Origin: a virus
Taxonomy: Duplodnaviria > Heunggongvirae > Uroviricota > Caudoviricetes
Length of the DNA stretch: 64,000 nt
Strand: one strand, 5' to 3'
IMG/VR virus record: IMGVR_UViG_2740892230_000016
Below, piece after piece: positions 13,452 to 37,130 of the stretch (positions within the stretch are counted from its first letter, which is position 1; each line of letters opens with the position of its first letter). Made by a program: the position numbers and the translations under genes. The notes beneath the pieces are model-generated. The model was not told the origin of the DNA and searched no databases. It saw only the letters and a program-made list of their open reading frames with translations.

Positions 13452-13477
13452 AAATCCCGCCAATCGGCGGGATTTTT
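13452..13477. terminator. Rho-independent terminator between convergent operons
   Basis: GC hairpin AAATCCCGCC-AAT-CGGCGGGATTT followed by a T-run. Confidence 0.6.
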
Positions 13478-13480
13478 ACC

Positions 13481-14575
13481 TCACGAGAAGCTCTTTTCTG
13501 ATGTCAGCCAACAGTGCTCGTGCAAATCTCTCGGAGGTTTTTCGACAAATGCCTCTTCAGCCACATCCTGCCAGGGGATTTGTTTAGCCCATTCAGCTAT
13601 AGCGTTATGGTTTGCCGAGAATAACGGTATTGTATAGGCCTTCAGCCAGTCTAATGTGCTGGAGTTGTGTTTTTGAGCGTGATGTTTCGCATGGTGTTTG
13701 GCGATCACGATCGTAGGCACTACCCATTTACTACCGTCAGTCATTGTGAAGTGCATATTACGGGGAACAGATGACTTTTCCATCAACTCCCGAATCCCGG
13801 GAAATTTCCCCAAGATCAATCGGCGATATTCATCGCTATTGCGCCCACCAAACTCTTTGGCTTTGAATTCAAGATATGCTTCAGAAACGAGAGGCGAATC
13901 CTCTGTGTTTAGAGTTATCGCCGTGAAAAAACCAGCAGGATTGTTTTTACTATGGGCCAACCGGTGATGCGAATCATAAAAGTACCCTTTCTCGCGTTCC
14001 GATGGTTTCGACAGCAACAGCAGGCGCGAGTCATAATTGGTTAAATTGCCAGTTATCACTGCATGAGCGCGATCGCTGATTTCCGCCGAGTTAATAACGA
14101 TGAAAAGATCGTGCGGTCCAGTAAAACCAGCCAGAGACACTTCGTTATTCAGACAATAGGTTATATAGACGCATCCCCATGTTTCACTGATATGCACCAA
14201 CCCTTTGTCAGGGTGCATTCTGAAATGATTGCCAAGAAAAGGGTGTTTTTGGGTAACTCGCTCCCAATAACGGAACATATAGTCAATTATTGTTTTTCGA
14301 CTATCGTTAATAGCAGGAGAAACAACCACTGTACGGGAACACGAATACAGTATTGTTTGCAGGATGCTAATCACTGCCACAATAGAGGTTTCCCCAATAC
14401 CATGTGGTGTGGTGGCAGTGACTTTGGCTCCGGTGTTCTTTATCGCGTTAATAATTTTTGCTTGATGAGGTGTTAACTCAATATCAAGCAACTCTTTCGC
14501 TGCCAGTTCCCAATTGTCTTTATACTGTTCTATCAGTGCTAACCAGGCAGATTCATTCTGTATACGATTAATCAC
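13481..14575 (-). CDS. Terminase large subunit (PacB) ATPase-domain paralogue with degenerate Walker motifs; nuclease domain absent
   Basis: Aligns by eye along its length with PacB (33827..35311): HGIGETS vs PacB SGHGTGKS (Walker A Lys lost), FIVINSAE vs YIIDEASG (Walker B DE lost), LLLSKPSEREKGYFYDSHH vs [18 protein letters not shown]; 364 aa vs 494 aa. Confidence 0.6.
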   Translation of the reverse strand: MINRIQNESAWLALIEQYKDNWELAAKELLDIELTPHQAKIINAIKNTGAKVTATTPHGIGETSIVAVISILQTILYSCSRTVVVSPAINDSRKTIIDYMFRYWERVTQKHPFLGNHFRMHPDKGLVHISETWGCVYITYCLNNEVSLAGFTGPHDLFIVINSAEISDRAHAVITGNLTNYDSRLLLLSKPSEREKGYFYDSHHRLAHSKNNPAGFFTAITLNTEDSPLVSEAYLEFKAKEFGGRNSDEYRRLILGKFPGIRELMEKSSVPRNMHFTMTDGSKWVVPTIVIAKHHAKHHAQKHNSSTLDWLKAYTIPLFSANHNAIAEWAKQIPWQDVAEEAFVEKPPRDLHEHCWLTSEKSFS

Positions 14576-15530
14576 TTTCCACCTCTTCCGTGGTGTTTTC
14601 TCGCAGTTCTGTTAATGCAGCACGACACAGGTTCCGGGCTTTGGCTATAGCCACACTTTTTACCTCATCCGTCATTGTGCAGGTAATGTACTGATCGAGT
14701 TCTTCAGCTCGGATGATGCTTTTCCCTATCATAAACTCTATTTGCCAGAGCAGATCGGCATCCATCGCCAGTATTTCAGCCTGGCCTTCTGGGCCTGCGG
14801 GGAAGCAAACATAAGACTGTTTGCCCAGGCCGATAACTCGACAACTTGCTTCAAGAATTGCACGCTTGAGGTCTGACTTTGTAACTGAAACAGGTTGATT
14901 TTCACCTGTGATTACGCCGTTGACATGGACGTGGAAGGGCATGTAGCTTGAAATTCGCTCTACTTTCCATACGCCAGCAAGCGATCCTTCATGCAGCACG
15001 ATGGGGGTAACCGCGAGTTTCATCTCACCATATAACTGCTGGCAGATAACTGGATTACTGAATACATCCAGAGGTTCACACTCAAACAGCGGCGCAATCT
15101 GCATGAGGTCCATCATGGTCATACCAGGGGTACGAGCAGTAATGAATCTGCGCATTCCAGTATCCATTGTGCGCCAGATAGCTACACCATGCTTTTTGCT
15201 CACTTCTTCAGTAAAGCCAAGGTGGCACATGATGGTTTTTTCGATAGCCAGATCAGAGATAGAAACCTTTTCGCCTGGCACTCCATCGTTATTGATGGTC
15301 ACTTCGACACTCTGGCCATTACGTAGGCGGTATTGAATGGTTTTAGTATTTTGTGCTGTCATAGTCTTTTCTCTGCTTAAAAACTGATGTATTGCGCCTT
15401 CAGGTTGGTTAGGAATGTTTTCCCACCAGCGAAAGCAATATCTCGGGGTGTTCTTTTCGTGAAAAGCGCGCGCCATTGCCAACTTTGGCGTTTGTTTGCG
15501 AGTTCGTGCTTTTGTCGGCGTCTGGACCAC
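14568..15530 (-). CDS. Hypothetical protein
   Basis: 320-aa ORF co-oriented with and overlapping the TerL-like gene; no recognisable motif. Confidence 0.4.
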   Translation of the reverse strand: MVQTPTKARTRKQTPKLAMARAFHEKNTPRYCFRWWENIPNQPEGAIHQFLSREKTMTAQNTKTIQYRLRNGQSVEVTINNDGVPGEKVSISDLAIEKTIMCHLGFTEEVSKKHGVAIWRTMDTGMRRFITARTPGMTMMDLMQIAPLFECEPLDVFSNPVICQQLYGEMKLAVTPIVLHEGSLAGVWKVERISSYMPFHVHVNGVITGENQPVSVTKSDLKRAILEASCRVIGLGKQSYVCFPAGPEGQAEILAMDADLLWQIEFMIGKSIIRAEELDQYITCTMTDEVKSVAIAKARNLCRAALTELRENTTEEVESD

Positions 15531-15559: not shown

Positions 15560-16048
15560 TCAAAACGGAATATCGTCGTCAAAGTCCATTGGAGGTTCGT
15601 TATTGGCGTTGCTCTGAGGTTTACCGCCACCACTGTATTGCTGGTGGTTTTGAGGTTGGTTTGATTGCCCCCAGCCATTTGAGGACTGTGAATCGTCACG
15701 GCGAGCGCCGATCATTTGCATGGTGCCGCCCTGGCTGACGATAATTTCCGTCGTGTAACGTTCTACACCGGCGTCATCTGCCCACTTACGGGTTTTAAGT
15801 TTCCCTTCGATGTAGACCTGAGAACCTTTTCGTAAATACTCACTCGCAATTTCAGCAAGTTTTCCGAACAAAACGACTTTATGCCATTCTGTTTGCTCTT
15901 TCTGTTGGCCCGTTTGCTTGTCGCGCCATGATTCATTCGTTGCGATGCTGAGTCTTCCGACCGCGCCGCCATTTGGTATATACCTGATCTCCGGGTCTTG
16001 CCCCAGGGTGCCAATCAGGATGACTTTGTTTACACCGCGTTGTGCCAC
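15560..16048 (-). CDS. ssb: Single-stranded DNA-binding protein
   Basis: OB-fold N-terminus [17 protein letters not shown], Gly/Gln-rich linker and acidic tail MDFDDDIPF typical of SSB. Confidence 0.9.
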
Positions 16049-16066: not shown

Positions 16067-16083
16067 TAAATTAATTAGAGCAA
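16067..16083. promoter_or_regulatory. C1 repressor operator-like site
   Basis: AAATTAATTAGAGCAAT is the reverse complement of ATTGCTCTAATTAATTT (recalled P1 operator consensus ATTGCTCTAATAAATTT); lies in the divergent ssb/lyz intergenic region. Confidence 0.6.
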
Positions 16084-16217
16084 TAATGTATATCTTTGAA
16101 ACGTAGCTAACAAGTGATTTGCATTATCCTGTGCCTTCTAAAGGGATCGAGTCAGTCGGTATTGGCTGTGAATGGGTGTTTGTCCTGGAGCGTAAAAAAT
16201 TCGCTTATGAGGTCTTT

Positions 16218-19863: not shown

Positions 19864-22800
19864 ATGAACAAGCTATCTATGGGGGTGTTTCGCTGTTCAA
19901 GTGTCAGCGAAATATTGAAATACATTAGGGCAATAACATCTCACCGAGCGCCGATTAAATATGGCGTGGAAAAGGTGGAAGGCAAAAGCTATGACCGACT
20001 GCGCCGGGAGGCGAATCAGAAGGCGATAGATTTGCTTAATTCGCTGGTGGACGGCGCGACACTGACAGATGAACAGCGCCAGATCCTGGCTGGGTACACC
20101 GGTGAAGGCGGCATTGGCGGGTCCGTCTCCGAATATTACACACCAAAGCCGATCGCTGAAGGTGTCTGGGAGATCATGAAGCTCTACGGCGCGGACGTAG
20201 GTAACACTCTGGAACCATCGGCGGGAACCGGCGTTTTTAATGAGACAAAACCGGTTGGTACGGTGATGACCGCGACTGAGATCAGCAGTGTTTCCGGTCG
20301 TATAAACCAGTTGTTACACCCGGAAGACAGCGTACAGATTTCCCCGTTCGAACAGCTGGCTGTAAGCACGCCTAACGATTCATTCGACCATGTTGTGGGT
20401 AACGTTCCGTTCGGCGGTCGTGATAACACACGCAACATCGATAAGCCTTACGCAGAAGAAACGGACATGGGTTCTTACTTCATGCTCCGCATGCTGGACA
20501 AAATAAAGCCAGGCGGATTCATGTGTGTGATTGTGCCGCCGTCCATTGTTTCAGGTTCAAACATGAAGCGGTTACGCCTGCGCCTATCCCGTAAAGCTGA
20601 ATTTCTTGGCGCTCACCGCTTGCCTACCGGTACTTTTGACGCAAACGGGACCAGTACAGTCGTTGATGTGGTGCTGATGCGCAAACATCCGGCGGAGATG
20701 GCTGAGAAAATCCCCCTGGTGGATGAAAGCACTCTTGAATCGGCAAATGTGCTTTGGCCAACGTTTATTTCTGGCAAGTGGTTTGAAAAGGACGGTCGCC
20801 GGTTTGTTCATGGTACCCAGGAAAAGGGCTTCCAGGGGCGTATTGAGGTTCGTGCCGACGGGCAGATTGATAACCAGGCTCTTAAAGCGAAGCTGATTCA
20901 TCGTTTCGAAAGTCGTATCGACTGGTCTTTGCTCGATATGGCTGAACCGTCACCGACCGCAGATGTTGTTGATGAAGGGGAAATGCGCCTGATTAATGGC
21001 GTATGGCAAAAATATGCTGGTGGTCGCTGGATTGAAGCTGATGCCGGGAAGGAACTTAAGATCGATGCTGCCAGTTATGGCGCGGATAGCTGGGAGGCTC
21101 TTCAGCGTAACCTGACTACAACAGAAGGCCGTCTCGGCATGACATTTACCCAGATGGCAAATGTCCGCGATAAGTACACCACATCAATCAGCGACGATAT
21201 GGTGCAGCTGGTGGACTGGATTAACAGCCAGCCTGAAAAATACCGTGAACGCTTGTATCGCGGGGCGATGATTGGCCGGATGTTAATTGAATATCAGGAC
21301 ATGAAGGCCGCCGGGCATAGTGCTGAACAAATCGAACAGCAGCGCCTTTCTCTGGTATCCCGTTTGCAGGCAGAGATTGACCGTTTTGGTAACCCCGGTC
21401 GCGGCCCGATAGCGAAATTATCGGGGAGCGGTGCGCGCGCCTGGTTTGCTTTCCGTGGTGCAATTAAGCTGGATGGCACTATTTCTGACGAGCTGGCAGG
21501 AAAGCTGGTTACGCATGATTCCAGCGCAAGTTATGACTCCACCAGCTATCAGGACACCCTGCGTTATCTCTACAGTGATCTCACTCGCGATCCAATCCAG
21601 CTCGATGATTTCCGCCTTGCGTTTACCGGCGAACTGCCAGCCAGTGATGAAGAGTTGCTTAATTTATTGGCCAGCACCCCTGGTATTGCGGTTTCACCGT
21701 ATGGCGGGATTGTTCCGTTCGCCCGCGCCACCAGCGGCGACATTAACGAGATAGTGGCTCCAAAACAGGAATTCCTCGCCACGCTCCCCGACGGTCCAGT
21801 AAAGAACAACGTCCTTAATCAGCTGGCAGCGATCGAAGAGAAGCGCATCAAGACGCCAGCAGAGAATATCCGGTTTAAGCTCAATAGCCGTTGGTTCGAC
21901 CGTTCCGTCATTCTGGAATTTTTGCAGGAAAACGGCTATCCGGATCTGCGCTATGTGCAGTCAGTGCAGCTTGAAGGCGACGAAATGGTTTCTGACACCT
22001 ATCACGGTGGTGATGGTCTGTTCGTCGGGCACCGATACGGTGTCGTCCAGCGCAAGGATAAAGAAACAGGCGAGATCCGCTACGAGTGGGACCGTAAATC
22101 AGGTGAAAACGCGACCGGGTTCCCGGCACAGCTGGAAAAGTATCTCAATGGTGCGCGTATCGGTGGCAAAGATAGCGCGACGGCTAACGGCTACCGCGAG
22201 CAGATGGCACTGCTTGAGGACCAGTTCAATAAGTGGATCAAGACGCACGATCGCTACGATGAGCTGGTTGCCAAATACAACGATGTGTTCAATAGCAATA
22301 TCCCGTATGAACACTCTGGCGATCCGCTTGGGTTGAAGGGATTAAGCGGTAAGCGCCAGCCATTTGATTACCAGAATAGCGAGGTGCGCCGACTGTCCGA
22401 AGATGGGCGCGGCATCCTGGGCTTCGGCACCGGGCTGGGTAAAACCACGACCGCGCTGGCGCTTGAGGCGTTCAACTATGAGAACGGTCGTTCCACCCGT
22501 ACTGCGTATGTAGTGCCTAAATCAGTGCTGGAAAACTGGTATTACGAAGCAAAAGAGTTTCTGAGTGAAGAGGCATTCAGTAACTACCTGTTCGTCGGTC
22601 TTGATGTGCTGATGGATGGCGATCAGATTCGCCAGGTGCCGGTGCTCGATGAGAACGGTAAACCTGTTCTTGGTACTGATGGCACTCCAGTTATGCGCGA
22701 TGCTCTTAAGCTGGCAGATGAAGCCACTATCACGGCGCGGATGAACGCGATCCCGCACTCAAATTACCGTGCAGTCGTGTTTACCAAAGAACAATACGCC

Positions 22801-30255: not shown

Positions 30256-30272
30256 CAATCAATTAGAGCAAT
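30256..30272. promoter_or_regulatory. C1 operator-like site
   Basis: Contains AATTAGAGCAAT (reverse complement of the ATTGCTCTAATT core) upstream of ref. Confidence 0.5.
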
Positions 30273-30715: not shown

Positions 30716-30732
30716 GTGTCACCATAAATATC

Positions 30733-30748
30733 AAATAATTAGAGCAAT
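30733..30748. promoter_or_regulatory. C1 operator-like site
   Basis: AAATAATTAGAGCAAT matches the reverse complement of the operator consensus; just downstream of the cre stop. Confidence 0.5.
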
Positions 30749-32292: not shown

Positions 32293-32309
32293 AGAATTAT
32301 TAGAGCAAT
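32293..32309. promoter_or_regulatory. C1 operator-like site (inverted partner of 32376..32391)
   Basis: AGAATTATTAGAGCAAT is the reverse complement of ATTGCTCTAATAATTCT. Confidence 0.55.
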
Positions 32310-32375: not shown

Positions 32376-32391
32376 ATTGCTCTAATAAATT
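32376..32391. promoter_or_regulatory. C1 operator, perfect consensus, overlapping a TTGACA -35 element
   Basis: TTGACA-ATTGCTCTAATAAATT; sits upstream of coi and c1. Confidence 0.7.
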
Positions 32392-32630
32392 ATAGTTTTG
32401 CCGCCGTTTCGTAATACGACTTTGGATTCACTATTTAATGTGTCTTCAGCGTTGTAGAGCGGCTCAGAAGGAAATGAGCAAACAGGGAAACCTTATACAA
32501 CGGCATTACAGCTATGCATTGCTCATCTTACACACAGCGCAATGTTGTTAGATTACCCCAGCATGGATCATGGGTGAAACAGTAGGTCAGAGCTTCAGGC
32601 TCTGTGTTGTCAATACAGTGAGGCATAATT

Positions 32631-32840
32631 ATGGCTTTCATTCCACCAACCATCGACGACGTTAGACATTGCTCTAACGCTTTATCTGTAGACCCCGCCG
32701 AAACCGACGCTGCCCGCGCCATTGCTGAACACTACTCAAAGATATCCAATCAGGAGTACCGCATCACCCAAGACGACCTGGATGATCTCACTGACACAAT
32801 CGAATATCTCATGGCCACTAACCAGCCAGACTCACAATAA
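32631..32840 (+). CDS. coi: Coi, C1 inactivator
   Basis: 69 aa immediately upstream of c1; size and position match P1 Coi. Confidence 0.75.
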   Translation: MAFIPPTIDDVRHCSNALSVDPAETDAARAIAEHYSKISNQEYRITQDDLDDLTDTIEYLMATNQPDSQ

Positions 32841-32950
32841 ATGCACTAATAAATCTATTATTTTCGTTGGATCCTTCTATAATGGTGGTCAACAACTCCC
32901 AGTGTAATCCGCTGTGAGTTGTTGGCCATGTCAATTCTGGAGGAGGATCA

Positions 32951-33826: not shown

Positions 33827-35311
33827 TTATTCATTAAGCCATGCCAGAGCTTCATCAACCTGCGCTTCGTCTTCGACGCTAAGCACTTCATCCTGGGGAA
33901 CATAATCCGCCAGCATAGCGAAACAATATGTATCCCAATGGTCTGGTGAGTGCAGGTTGAGTTTTTTCTTCATATCCTCCTTACTCATCACCTTCCATTG
34001 ACCTGCGGAGTTAATCCCTACAGGGATTTTCGACGCTTCCTCAATAGTTTCATTACCCTTATCCAGTCTCATACGACCTGATTTTACGGCCTCTGCGGCT
34101 TGAACGTTGGCATAAGCACGCTTATCAAAGTACAGGCTCTTATCTTCACGGCTATGCATCTTTTTACCCCAGCGTATACGCTGTACGGTAATACCATAAT
34201 ACTCGTACATCAGATCCGCCGTTGCTTTACCCAGCCCATCGCCGTCTATCGCTATGGTGATATTTGGGAATCGCTCAGGATTACATTCTGCGAAAATTTT
34301 GGCGGCAAGCTGCGTTTCTGTAACGTCTGTGTATTCCAGCATTCGATAGTTGATTACACGGCGTTTATTTCTCTGGCCGGACACCATCATGATATTGATA
34401 ACGGACTTATCCCTTCCCGTACCACCAGCAACGTCCACACATGCAAGCCAGCCCCATCCTTTGGCAATCTTGACTTTCCGCCGCGTTGCACGTTCAACCT
34501 CATCACGTCCAAGAAGGAAGCCATCCTGTGATTTAGGGAATAGGCCGCGTACCTTAATCATGTACATAGGGTTATCGCGCCCGCCGTACTCCGCCAGCTT
34601 CATTTTGATAAATGCTGGCGTTACCAGCGGTGATTCCTCACTGTTAAGCGTGATCGCCGTATAAACGCCATCAGGGTTACCAGGACGCTTGGCCAGTTTA
34701 TGGTGTGTATCGTAGAAATAGCCGCTTGGGCGTGTAGGCTGTGACAGTAATAAGATGCGGTTATCCTGTCCGGTAAGAGCACCGGTGATGATACCGAAAG
34801 CTCTATCACTGACACCGGAGGCTTCATCGATAATATACAGAAGATGATCTGCGTGTTCACCGGCGAGAGCTTCTTCACTTCCCAGACGAAAGCCCTTCGG
34901 TACTACAGTCCATACACCTTTACCTGTAACCTCATAGAAAGCGGTTTCTGTCAGAACAAAATAATCAGCAAGCCATGGGAAACGGCTGGTGGCAGTAGCC
35001 CAGTTTATCTTGATGTACTTGAATATACCGGTCATTACCTGCTGAATTTTGTTCGCAACGATAATGGCACGGGCACCTGGATACATGATTATGAACAACA
35101 TGATCATGATAGAAGTCATGTCTGATTTCCCGGTACCGTGACCAGACGAAACAGATGTCTTGCTACCCTGTTCCTGCACAGACTCAATAATCAGATCCTG
35201 CTGCCAGGTAGGTGTTTTGCCGAACAAAACATCAGCGGCAGCAATCCAGTCATAACGATATAGCGCCACCAGCTCGCGCCAACGTGGATCCGTTACGCAA
35301 CTTCTGGCCAT
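33827..35311 (-). CDS. pacB: Terminase large subunit PacB
   Basis: 494 aa; Walker A SGHGTGKS, Walker [12 protein letters not shown]-terminal nuclease domain with acidic residues (AIDGDG). Confidence 0.85.
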
Positions 35312-37113: not shown

Positions 37114-37130
37114 CAATACATTAGAGCAAT
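37114..37130. promoter_or_regulatory. C1 operator-like site upstream of lpa
   Basis: AATACATTAGAGCAAT, reverse complement of ATTGCTCTAATGTATT. Confidence 0.55.

Follow-up and report, generated by a model that had tools for sequence, protein, structure and literature searches.

Background

Terminase large subunits (TerL) are among the most conserved phage proteins and a main target of bacterial pattern-recognition immunity. Packaging can also be subverted by protein binding, as in the case of the TerS-targeting satellite proteins Rpp and Ppi, which are not known to be terminase homologues. This work concerns a gene, hereafter pseudo-TerL, that occupies positions 13481..14575 (minus strand) of a 64,000-nucleotide stretch, referred to as the window, from the IMG/VR virus record IMGVR_UViG_2740892230_000016. 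Its 364-aa product is a catalytically dead paralogue of PacB, the terminase large subunit of the same element. The source of the window is a P1-like phage-plasmid, which in this region is 100% identical to the P1-type phage records MH422554 and MH445380 and carries the genes darA, ddrA, ddrB, hxr, ssb, lyz, pro, prt, darB, c1, pacB, and pacA.

Two groups of described systems are among the closest to this locus. The first one comprises the TerL sensors Avs1-3 and Upx, which are not terminase homologues and act on the packaging machinery by protein binding, the mode of action proposed below for pseudo-TerL. The TerL ATPase domain is sufficient to activate EcAvs2 and Upx, and both the active site and the bound ATP of the terminase are read by EcAvs2 and SeAvs3 (Evans et al. 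2026, PMC13601566). The second one is represented by vs.8 of phage T4, a terminase-ATPase paralogue that stands alone, has intact Walker A and B motifs, and activates EcAvs2 (PMC13601566). By its published description, vs.8 is the closest published analogue of pseudo-TerL, as each is a second protein of its phage with homology restricted to the ATPase domain of the resident TerL; however, vs.8 keeps the Walker A and B motifs, whereas pseudo-TerL has lost both.

Results and discussion

Identification of a catalytically dead PacB paralogue

The open reading frame (ORF) of pseudo-TerL starts with GTG, preceded by the strong Shine-Dalgarno sequence GAGGTGG. The reference paralogue, pacB (33827..35311, minus strand), encodes the active terminase large subunit of the element, a 494-aa protein with intact GHGTGKS and IIDEAS motifs. 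In a BLASTP comparison, residues 11-272 of pseudo-TerL align with the PacB of the window with 35% identity over 266 aa (E 7e-53), well above chance expectation, and the two proteins share the fold of the ATPase domain, its N-terminal helices, and the lid-region motifs GYFYDSHH, SEDSPLV, and EYGGR..Y. The initial annotation of the gene, which was made by eye, proposed an alignment with the PacB ATPase domain along the whole length of the product; this holds for residues ~11-272, whereas residues ~270-364 form an unrelated small domain.

The placement of the catalytic motifs is the same in BLASTP and in two independent MAFFT alignments. The Walker A remnant PHGIGETS (residues 57-64; 14384..14407, minus strand) corresponds to GHGTGKS of PacB and keeps two glycines, G59 and G61, with Glu62 in place of the lysine. 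In the Walker B remnant LFIVINSAE (residues 157-165; 14081..14107, minus strand), which corresponds to LYIIDEASG of PacB, the aspartate is replaced by Ile161 and the catalytic glutamate by Asn162. The coupling (C) motif is degenerate as well, with KPSE (residues 190-193; 13997..14008, minus strand) at the position of QPTR in PacB, so that SQPT has become SKPS. The C-terminal, RNase H-like nuclease domain is absent: the protein ends at residue 364, and its residues 270-364 are unlike the C-terminus of PacB. The replaced Walker A lysine, the lost acidic pair of Walker B, and the missing nuclease domain had all been noted in the initial annotation, and each of these observations is borne out; a shifted by-eye alignment, which could have produced them spuriously, is discarded, since both BLASTP and MAFFT put the motifs exactly where the earlier reader did.

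A column-by-column contrast with 18 active PacB-type terminases demonstrated that the Walker A motif, the Walker B glutamate, the C motif, and a few adjacent positions are invariant in the active proteins and lost in the clade of short relatives to which pseudo-TerL belongs. The column of the Walker A lysine contains K in 18/18 aligned active relatives and E, R, H, T, M, C, or I in the pseudo clade; likewise, the Q, P, and T of the C motif are invariant in the active relatives and lost in the clade. The positions that are kept are non-catalytic and include Q38, G59, G61, E146-L-A-G150, G197-x-F-Y200, H204, S227-P228, G256, and F258.

The genomic position of pseudo-TerL also distinguishes it from PacB. 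The gene is flanked by isaA and hxr at a distance of about 19 kb from pacA-pacB, and thus it is not part of a late unit adjacent to pacA; instead of the late lpa-pacA-pacB unit, it belongs to a putative operator-controlled ssb operon, and it is accessory rather than essential. The initial annotation had placed the gene next to ssb and the antirestriction operon, and this is borne out: it is followed by hxr and then by the ddrB/ddrA/darA operon, while isaA and ssb are found on its opposite side. Altogether, pseudo-TerL lacks five of the six defining features of a functional large terminase, the ASCE ATPase fold being the one that it has, and it should not be annotated as such. The label "terminase large subunit", which is attached to the gene in two GenBank phage records, is contradicted by the motif analysis and could mislead tools that count or classify terminases.

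Among the existing protein families, pseudo-TerL is a full-length member of PHROG 5902 (E 5.3e-184; residues 1-364 against profile positions 1-359 of 359) and of the NCBI "hypothetical protein" cluster P0001, which has 851 member sequences and a representative 98% identical to pseudo-TerL; neither source assigns a function. A Pfam search gave no match for pseudo-TerL, which is uninformative, since PacB itself has none either. The NCBIfam profile search returned noise only, and nothing was found in the sequence search of the Protein Data Bank (PDB). In the literature searched on dead, second, or paralogous terminases and on the isaA-hxr region, the gene is described nowhere.

Predicted structure and domain organization

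The AlphaFold2 (AF2) model of pseudo-TerL has a mean pLDDT of 84.8. The N-terminal domain (residues 1-262; 13790..14575, minus strand), mostly modelled at pLDDT >90, adopts the ATPase fold of terminase large subunits according to AF2, Foldseek, and BFVD comparisons. The predicted structure retains the strand-loop-helix geometry of the P-loop, with the catalytic motifs lost. The best Foldseek matches in the PDB are Sf6 gp2, the P74-26 TerL ATPase, T4 gp17, and D6E TerL (E 1e-9 to 1e-6), and the named matches in BFVD are nearly all terminase large subunits.

The C-terminal domain (residues 263-364; 13481..13789, minus strand), which stands in place of the nuclease domain, is modelled with lower confidence (pLDDT 56-77) and is strongly conserved in the orthologues. 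It is 36% identical (E 9e-13) to the last 100 aa of a 471-aa protein of Xanthomonas CP2-like phages (phrog_17928; L087 1885-3300), whose gene adjoins the genes for an ERF recombinase, an exonuclease, and a single-stranded DNA-binding protein (SSB). A stand-alone homologue of 98 aa is encoded by gene_35 of Cronobacter phage JK004 (L086 4010-4306), two genes downstream of the gene for the DnaB helicase, and P0124 was recorded as a stand-alone homologue, too; the domain is also homologous to a 123-aa metagenomic protein. The domain has no relative in Pfam, and its profile gave no credible match against the PDB. A remnant of the nuclease domain was considered and rejected, as there is no similarity to the C-terminus of PacB and the homologues are either fused to other N-termini or stand alone. 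We read the C-terminal domain as a mobile module that was probably acquired.

Conservation, selection, and the family of short relatives

All copies of pseudo-TerL found in IMG/VR (21/21) are intact ORFs of 364 codons. Comparison with alleles that are 90-99% identical gives a ratio of nonsynonymous to synonymous substitution rates (dN/dS) of 0.19-0.37, with both domains constrained and the C-terminal domain at 0.03-0.18. The corresponding values are 0.02-0.04 for pro, 0-0.07 for lyz, and 0.07-0.12 for prt among the core genes, and 0.14-0.18 for darA and 0.24 for isaA among the accessory ones; thus, both dN/dS and dN of pseudo-TerL are above those of the core genes compared and similar to those of darA and isaA. 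As a separate observation, the divergence of the pseudo-TerL alleles between the window and contigs L017 and L016 reaches 0.15 for dS and 0.033 for dN and is above that of most flanking genes, which hints at either allelic exchange or older alleles at this position.

Orthologues with 48-53% identity were identified in other P1-related elements, with the same length, both domains, and the same position after isaA. In L023 (7788-9077) and in P0002, the called orthologue has an N-terminal extension of 65-100 aa (429-461 aa in total), which overlaps isaA in another frame; it is an artefact of ORF calling, and the conserved start matches the 364-aa form.

A broader family was revealed by an exhaustive HMMER search of 1.84 billion representatives, which returned 644 relatives; a word-indexed protein search yielded only three, and a viral scan with P0007 as a query found nothing. 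When the aligned homologues of 200 aa or more are compared, both the G-x-G-x-G-K-[ST] and the [DE]-E motifs are present in almost all proteins of 450-860 aa, whereas neither Walker motif is found in a set of about 14 short proteins (208-444 aa), counted as representatives at the 50% identity level. Ten of these short relatives form one clade in a rough neighbour-joining tree, where long-branch attraction is possible. Most family members have no C-terminal domain and are found in other contexts. The relatives of 230-270 aa were suspected to be fragments at contig ends; the ones inspected turned out to be complete, with further genes following them, and the suspicion was rejected for these. The calculated isoelectric points (pI) differ as well: the active ATPase domains are basic (8.5-9.7), while the pseudo members are mostly neutral or acidic, which argues against DNA handling and for protein binding. 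The family signature, as read from sequence, is that of a pseudoenzyme that keeps the fold and its surfaces and has given up the chemistry and the DNA-handling charge.

These data bear on the explanation that pseudo-TerL is a decaying relic, i.e., a functionless pseudogene or a frameshifted fragment of a duplicated terminase gene. The loss of all catalytic motifs together with the nuclease domain, and the dispensability of the gene in canonical P1, are what such a relic could look like. However, the 21 intact copies, the range of dN/dS, the orthologues that keep length and position at 48-53% identity, the well-folded model, and the conserved family of ~14 representatives all speak against it, and we consider this explanation effectively refuted. 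The frameshifted fragment had been named in the initial annotation as an alternative, and it does not withstand the intact copies, the purifying selection, and the orthologues of the same architecture; the comparison of relatives showed in turn that the dead state is conserved family-wide. The evidence thus supports a true, selected, and catalytically dead paralogue of the PacB ATPase domain.

An accessory cassette in a variable slot

In the window, pseudo-TerL occupies a slot between the isaA stop and the hxr terminator (13476-14566), which behaves as a clean cassette site, with the homology breakpoints at the gene borders. Canonical P1 contains IS1 and the unrelated gene isaB exactly in this slot, and the homology with P1 breaks off at the hxr stop and starts again within pseudo-TerL, 23 nt from its 5' end. 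In NZ_CP100532.1, the same slot is taken by yjjJ, a gene of the HipA family, with breakpoints at 13475 and 14567. The possibility that IsaB is a relative or a remnant of pseudo-TerL in P1 was rejected (E 0.084). The slot coincides with the published hot spot RD-2 of P1-like elements (PMC6906374). In PLSDB, 120 plasmids carry pseudo-TerL, as compared with 617 plasmids with pacB. Pseudo-TerL is therefore accessory cargo in a swappable slot.

Predicted operon structure and C1 control

Pseudo-TerL is the last gene of a co-directional array that begins with ssb (15560..16048, minus strand) and continues with isaA (14568..15362, minus strand), which encodes a conserved upstream partner of 264 aa. 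The isaA stop overlaps the GTG start of pseudo-TerL (GTGATTAA), and translation of pseudo-TerL is probably coupled to that of IsaA. The ssb promoter region contains the operator Op21/Ossb of the C1 repressor (16068..16084, minus strand), which lies 20 bp upstream of ssb, matches the consensus at 16/17 positions, and is annotated at the same place in P1 (NC_005856). Directly 3' of pseudo-TerL, between this gene and the convergent hxr, a bidirectional terminator hairpin (13452..13475) marks the left edge of the cassette slot; it is the sole terminator-like site on the minus strand in the scanned region. This arrangement suggests a single C1-controlled ssb-isaA-pseudoTerL transcript, which would be made once C1 repression is lifted.

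With up to three mismatches allowed, the C1 operator consensus has eight matches in the window (16068-16084, 19918-19934, 30256-30272, 30732-30748, 32293-32309, 32376-32392, 32840-32856, and 37114-37130), as compared with 0.22 expected by chance, and these predicted sites map the immunity-controlled promoters of the element. The IsaA protein of the P1 reference is 320 aa long and starts from an upstream GTG (14568-15530 in the window), whereas the divergent homologues have 249-268 aa and start at the position of ATG 15362; hence, the start of the P1 reference protein is probably over-extended. IsaA has no match in the PDB, Pfam, or PADLOC, and its AF2 model has a pLDDT of 40. That IsaA might be a paralogue of PacA was rejected on comparison.

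The mode of control is difficult to reconcile with a role in competition, in which pseudo-TerL, as a dominant-negative terminase subunit, would poison the packaging motors of rivals sharing its cell, whether P1-like phages or satellites. An intact fold with a dead active site is indeed the architecture to be expected of a poison subunit, and the gene sits in a variable accessory slot where the alternative cargo is a HipA-like toxin. However, the C1 operator implies repression in the lysogen, which is when exclusion would be needed, and the protein would be present during packaging of the element itself; moreover, the clade is old, and nothing points to its derivation from the terminase of a particular rival. 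We consider such a role improbable.

Genomic contexts in other P1-like elements

All contexts recovered for the family members are P1-like elements. Most of these contexts, though not all, also have a gene for a PacB-type terminase on the contig: the window, L023-L033, L070, L069/L073, L080, L092, L093, and L094. In a divergent group, whose PacB is 57% identical to that of P1, the gene order is pacA-pacB-c1-cre-orf114-orf158-dUTPase-Tad2-like-IsaA-pseudoTerL. The succession of IsaA and pseudo-TerL is found in L023-L033, L070, and L093 as well, with IsaA 47-48% and pseudo-TerL 48-53% identical to their counterparts in the window, while the sister contigs of the group keep IsaA and carry other cargo after it. 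Since the pairing is conserved there and the sister contigs swap the cargo, the pairing of IsaA with pseudo-TerL is old, and the gene is accessory in the divergent group too.

The distance to the packaging genes varies among the carriers. In the L023-type contigs and in L093, pseudo-TerL is encoded about 5-6 kb downstream of pacB, and members of 237-252 aa are located 0.2-3.5 kb upstream of lpa-pacA-pacB (L080 8001-8714, L092 6001-6759, and L094 6001-6717). In L080 and L094, the member adjoins a gene with a domain related to crAss001_48 (PF21825, "Sequestin" in the precomputed Pfam hits); in L080, furthermore, the PacB gene, which adjoins a Tn3-family transposon, is shortened (268 aa). Another member, of 264 aa, is preceded by a radical-SAM gene. 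In a P1/P7-like context (L090 7336-8792), a 263-aa member overlaps the stop of a gene for a Ref-like RecA-dependent nuclease (PF16786), an arrangement suggesting that a terminase domain without a nuclease of its own is translationally coupled to a separate one.

The overlap with the Ref-like nuclease gene is one of the observations that would fit a function in replication or recombination, in which the dead ATPase domain and the C-terminal module act with Ssb, IsaA, or recombination proteins on DNA intermediates, independently of packaging. The operon that pseudo-TerL shares with ssb points in the same direction, as do the homologues of the C-terminal domain near the ERF, exonuclease, and SSB genes in Xanthomonas phages and near the DnaB helicase gene in JK004. 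On the other hand, most family members occur without the C-terminal domain and in other contexts, the loss of positive charge relative to the active terminase domains argues against DNA binding, and a nucleic-acid-binding motif was looked for in the protein and none was found. On balance, a replication or recombination accessory is an unlikely explanation.

Some carriers have a Tad2-like gene (Thoeris anti-defence, PF11195, formerly DUF2829) between ssb and isaA. It is located immediately upstream of isaA in L084 (3758-4432; NZ_CP058881.1), L023 (6527-7213), and L093 (4590-5234), and it is absent from the window. This gene, which lies in the same operon of the sister elements, and the adjacent Dar antirestriction operon raise the possibility of a counter-defence role, in which an early-made look-alike of the PacB ATPase domain is aimed at the TerL-detecting host sensors (Avs1-3, Upx). 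As an antagonist, the protein would fill the pocket of the sensor but lack the ATP that, when bound to terminase, seals and activates the complex; in a weaker version, the loss of the nucleotide site would merely keep a TerL-like protein invisible to the sensors. The features read by EcAvs2 and SeAvs3, the bound ATP and the active site, are exactly those lost in pseudo-TerL (PMC13601566). Consistent with this role are also the position of the gene as cassette-like cargo in the RD-2 hot spot (PMC6906374), the dN/dS and dN values, which exceed those of the compared core genes and resemble those of darA and isaA, and the mostly acidic or neutral surfaces.

Several points weigh against counter-defence. 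The loss of the ATP site may simply abolish binding by Avs2 and Avs3, in which case no working decoy would result, and none of the known anti-Avs proteins is a terminase mimic. The association with anti-defence genes is one of neighbourhood: no family of the PADLOC-DB defence profiles was matched at E <=0.1 by pseudo-TerL, IsaA, or three other family members, and no anti-defence family matched pseudo-TerL. Finally, a promoter as weak as that of ssb is said to be would not favour it. Taken together, a counter-defence role appears rather unlikely, although it is the main alternative to the model preferred below. Its most specific form, where pseudo-TerL is an ATP-free mimic of a viral pattern that plugs the NLR-like sensors Avs1-3, and possibly Upx, without presenting the triggering ATP and active site, is distinctly doubtful; if true, it would be the first phage antagonist that imitates the very protein its sensor detects.

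Pseudo-TerL as a putative inert mimic of PacB

Given that catalysis is excluded by the sequence, pseudo-TerL probably acts by binding. Our tentative preference, held with less than even confidence, is that it is a non-catalytic mimic of PacB that competes for the partners of the terminase. The close position of several subfamilies to lpa-pacAB, the confinement of the family to P1-like elements in all contexts recovered, and the retained non-catalytic surfaces support such a model. Being a paralogue of the ATPase half of PacB that keeps the fold and the non-catalytic surfaces, pseudo-TerL would neither bind nor hydrolyze ATP in the canonical way and would have no nuclease activity. It would probably be produced only after C1 repression has been lifted and before the late PacA and PacB proteins. 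Acting stoichiometrically, with the terminase's own partners as the preferred target, it could form complexes with PacA at pac, or with PacB, that are incompetent for cleavage and translocation. As a result, pac cutting and the initiation of packaging, which a headful packager has to keep in check, would be damped or delayed. The cleavage of pac is reportedly regulated, and internal pac sites are said to have to stay uncut for headful packaging to be processive.

A number of observations weigh against this model. Canonical P1, which has no such gene, packages normally, and only ~20% of the P1-like plasmids carry it, so that any role in packaging has to be optional. Pseudo-TerL is separated from pacAB by ~19 kb in P1 itself, and its similarity to the PacB of its own element is no greater than that to other PacBs. 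The slot and its neighbours have an anti-defence and toxin flavour (the Tad2-like gene, the Dar operon, and the HipA-like cargo), which fits a decoy aimed at host sensors at least equally well. In addition, the ssb promoter is reportedly weak as well as C1-repressed, and such weakness is awkward for a stoichiometric competitor. The initial annotation had offered a packaging regulator, a decoy, or a structural protein as possible repurposed functions; the evidence fits a regulator or a decoy, and nothing in it supports a structural (virion) role. Three features had escaped the initial annotation: the additional C-terminal domain, the conserved link with isaA, and the membership in a broader family.

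Conclusions

The existence and conservation of the pseudo-TerL family are solid, and the family is new relative to the literature searched. This selected and family-wide dead copy of the terminase ATPase domain indicates that the P1 group of phage-plasmids, common across Enterobacterales and employed in transduction, has put the fold to a new, non-enzymatic use. As a regulator of packaging, pseudo-TerL would shed light on the limits set to pac cutting by headful packagers; as an antagonist of immunity, it would shed light on the ways in which phages cope with terminase sensing. The presence of the gene in about one of five carriers, and its absence from canonical P1, offers a simple genetic handle on its function.

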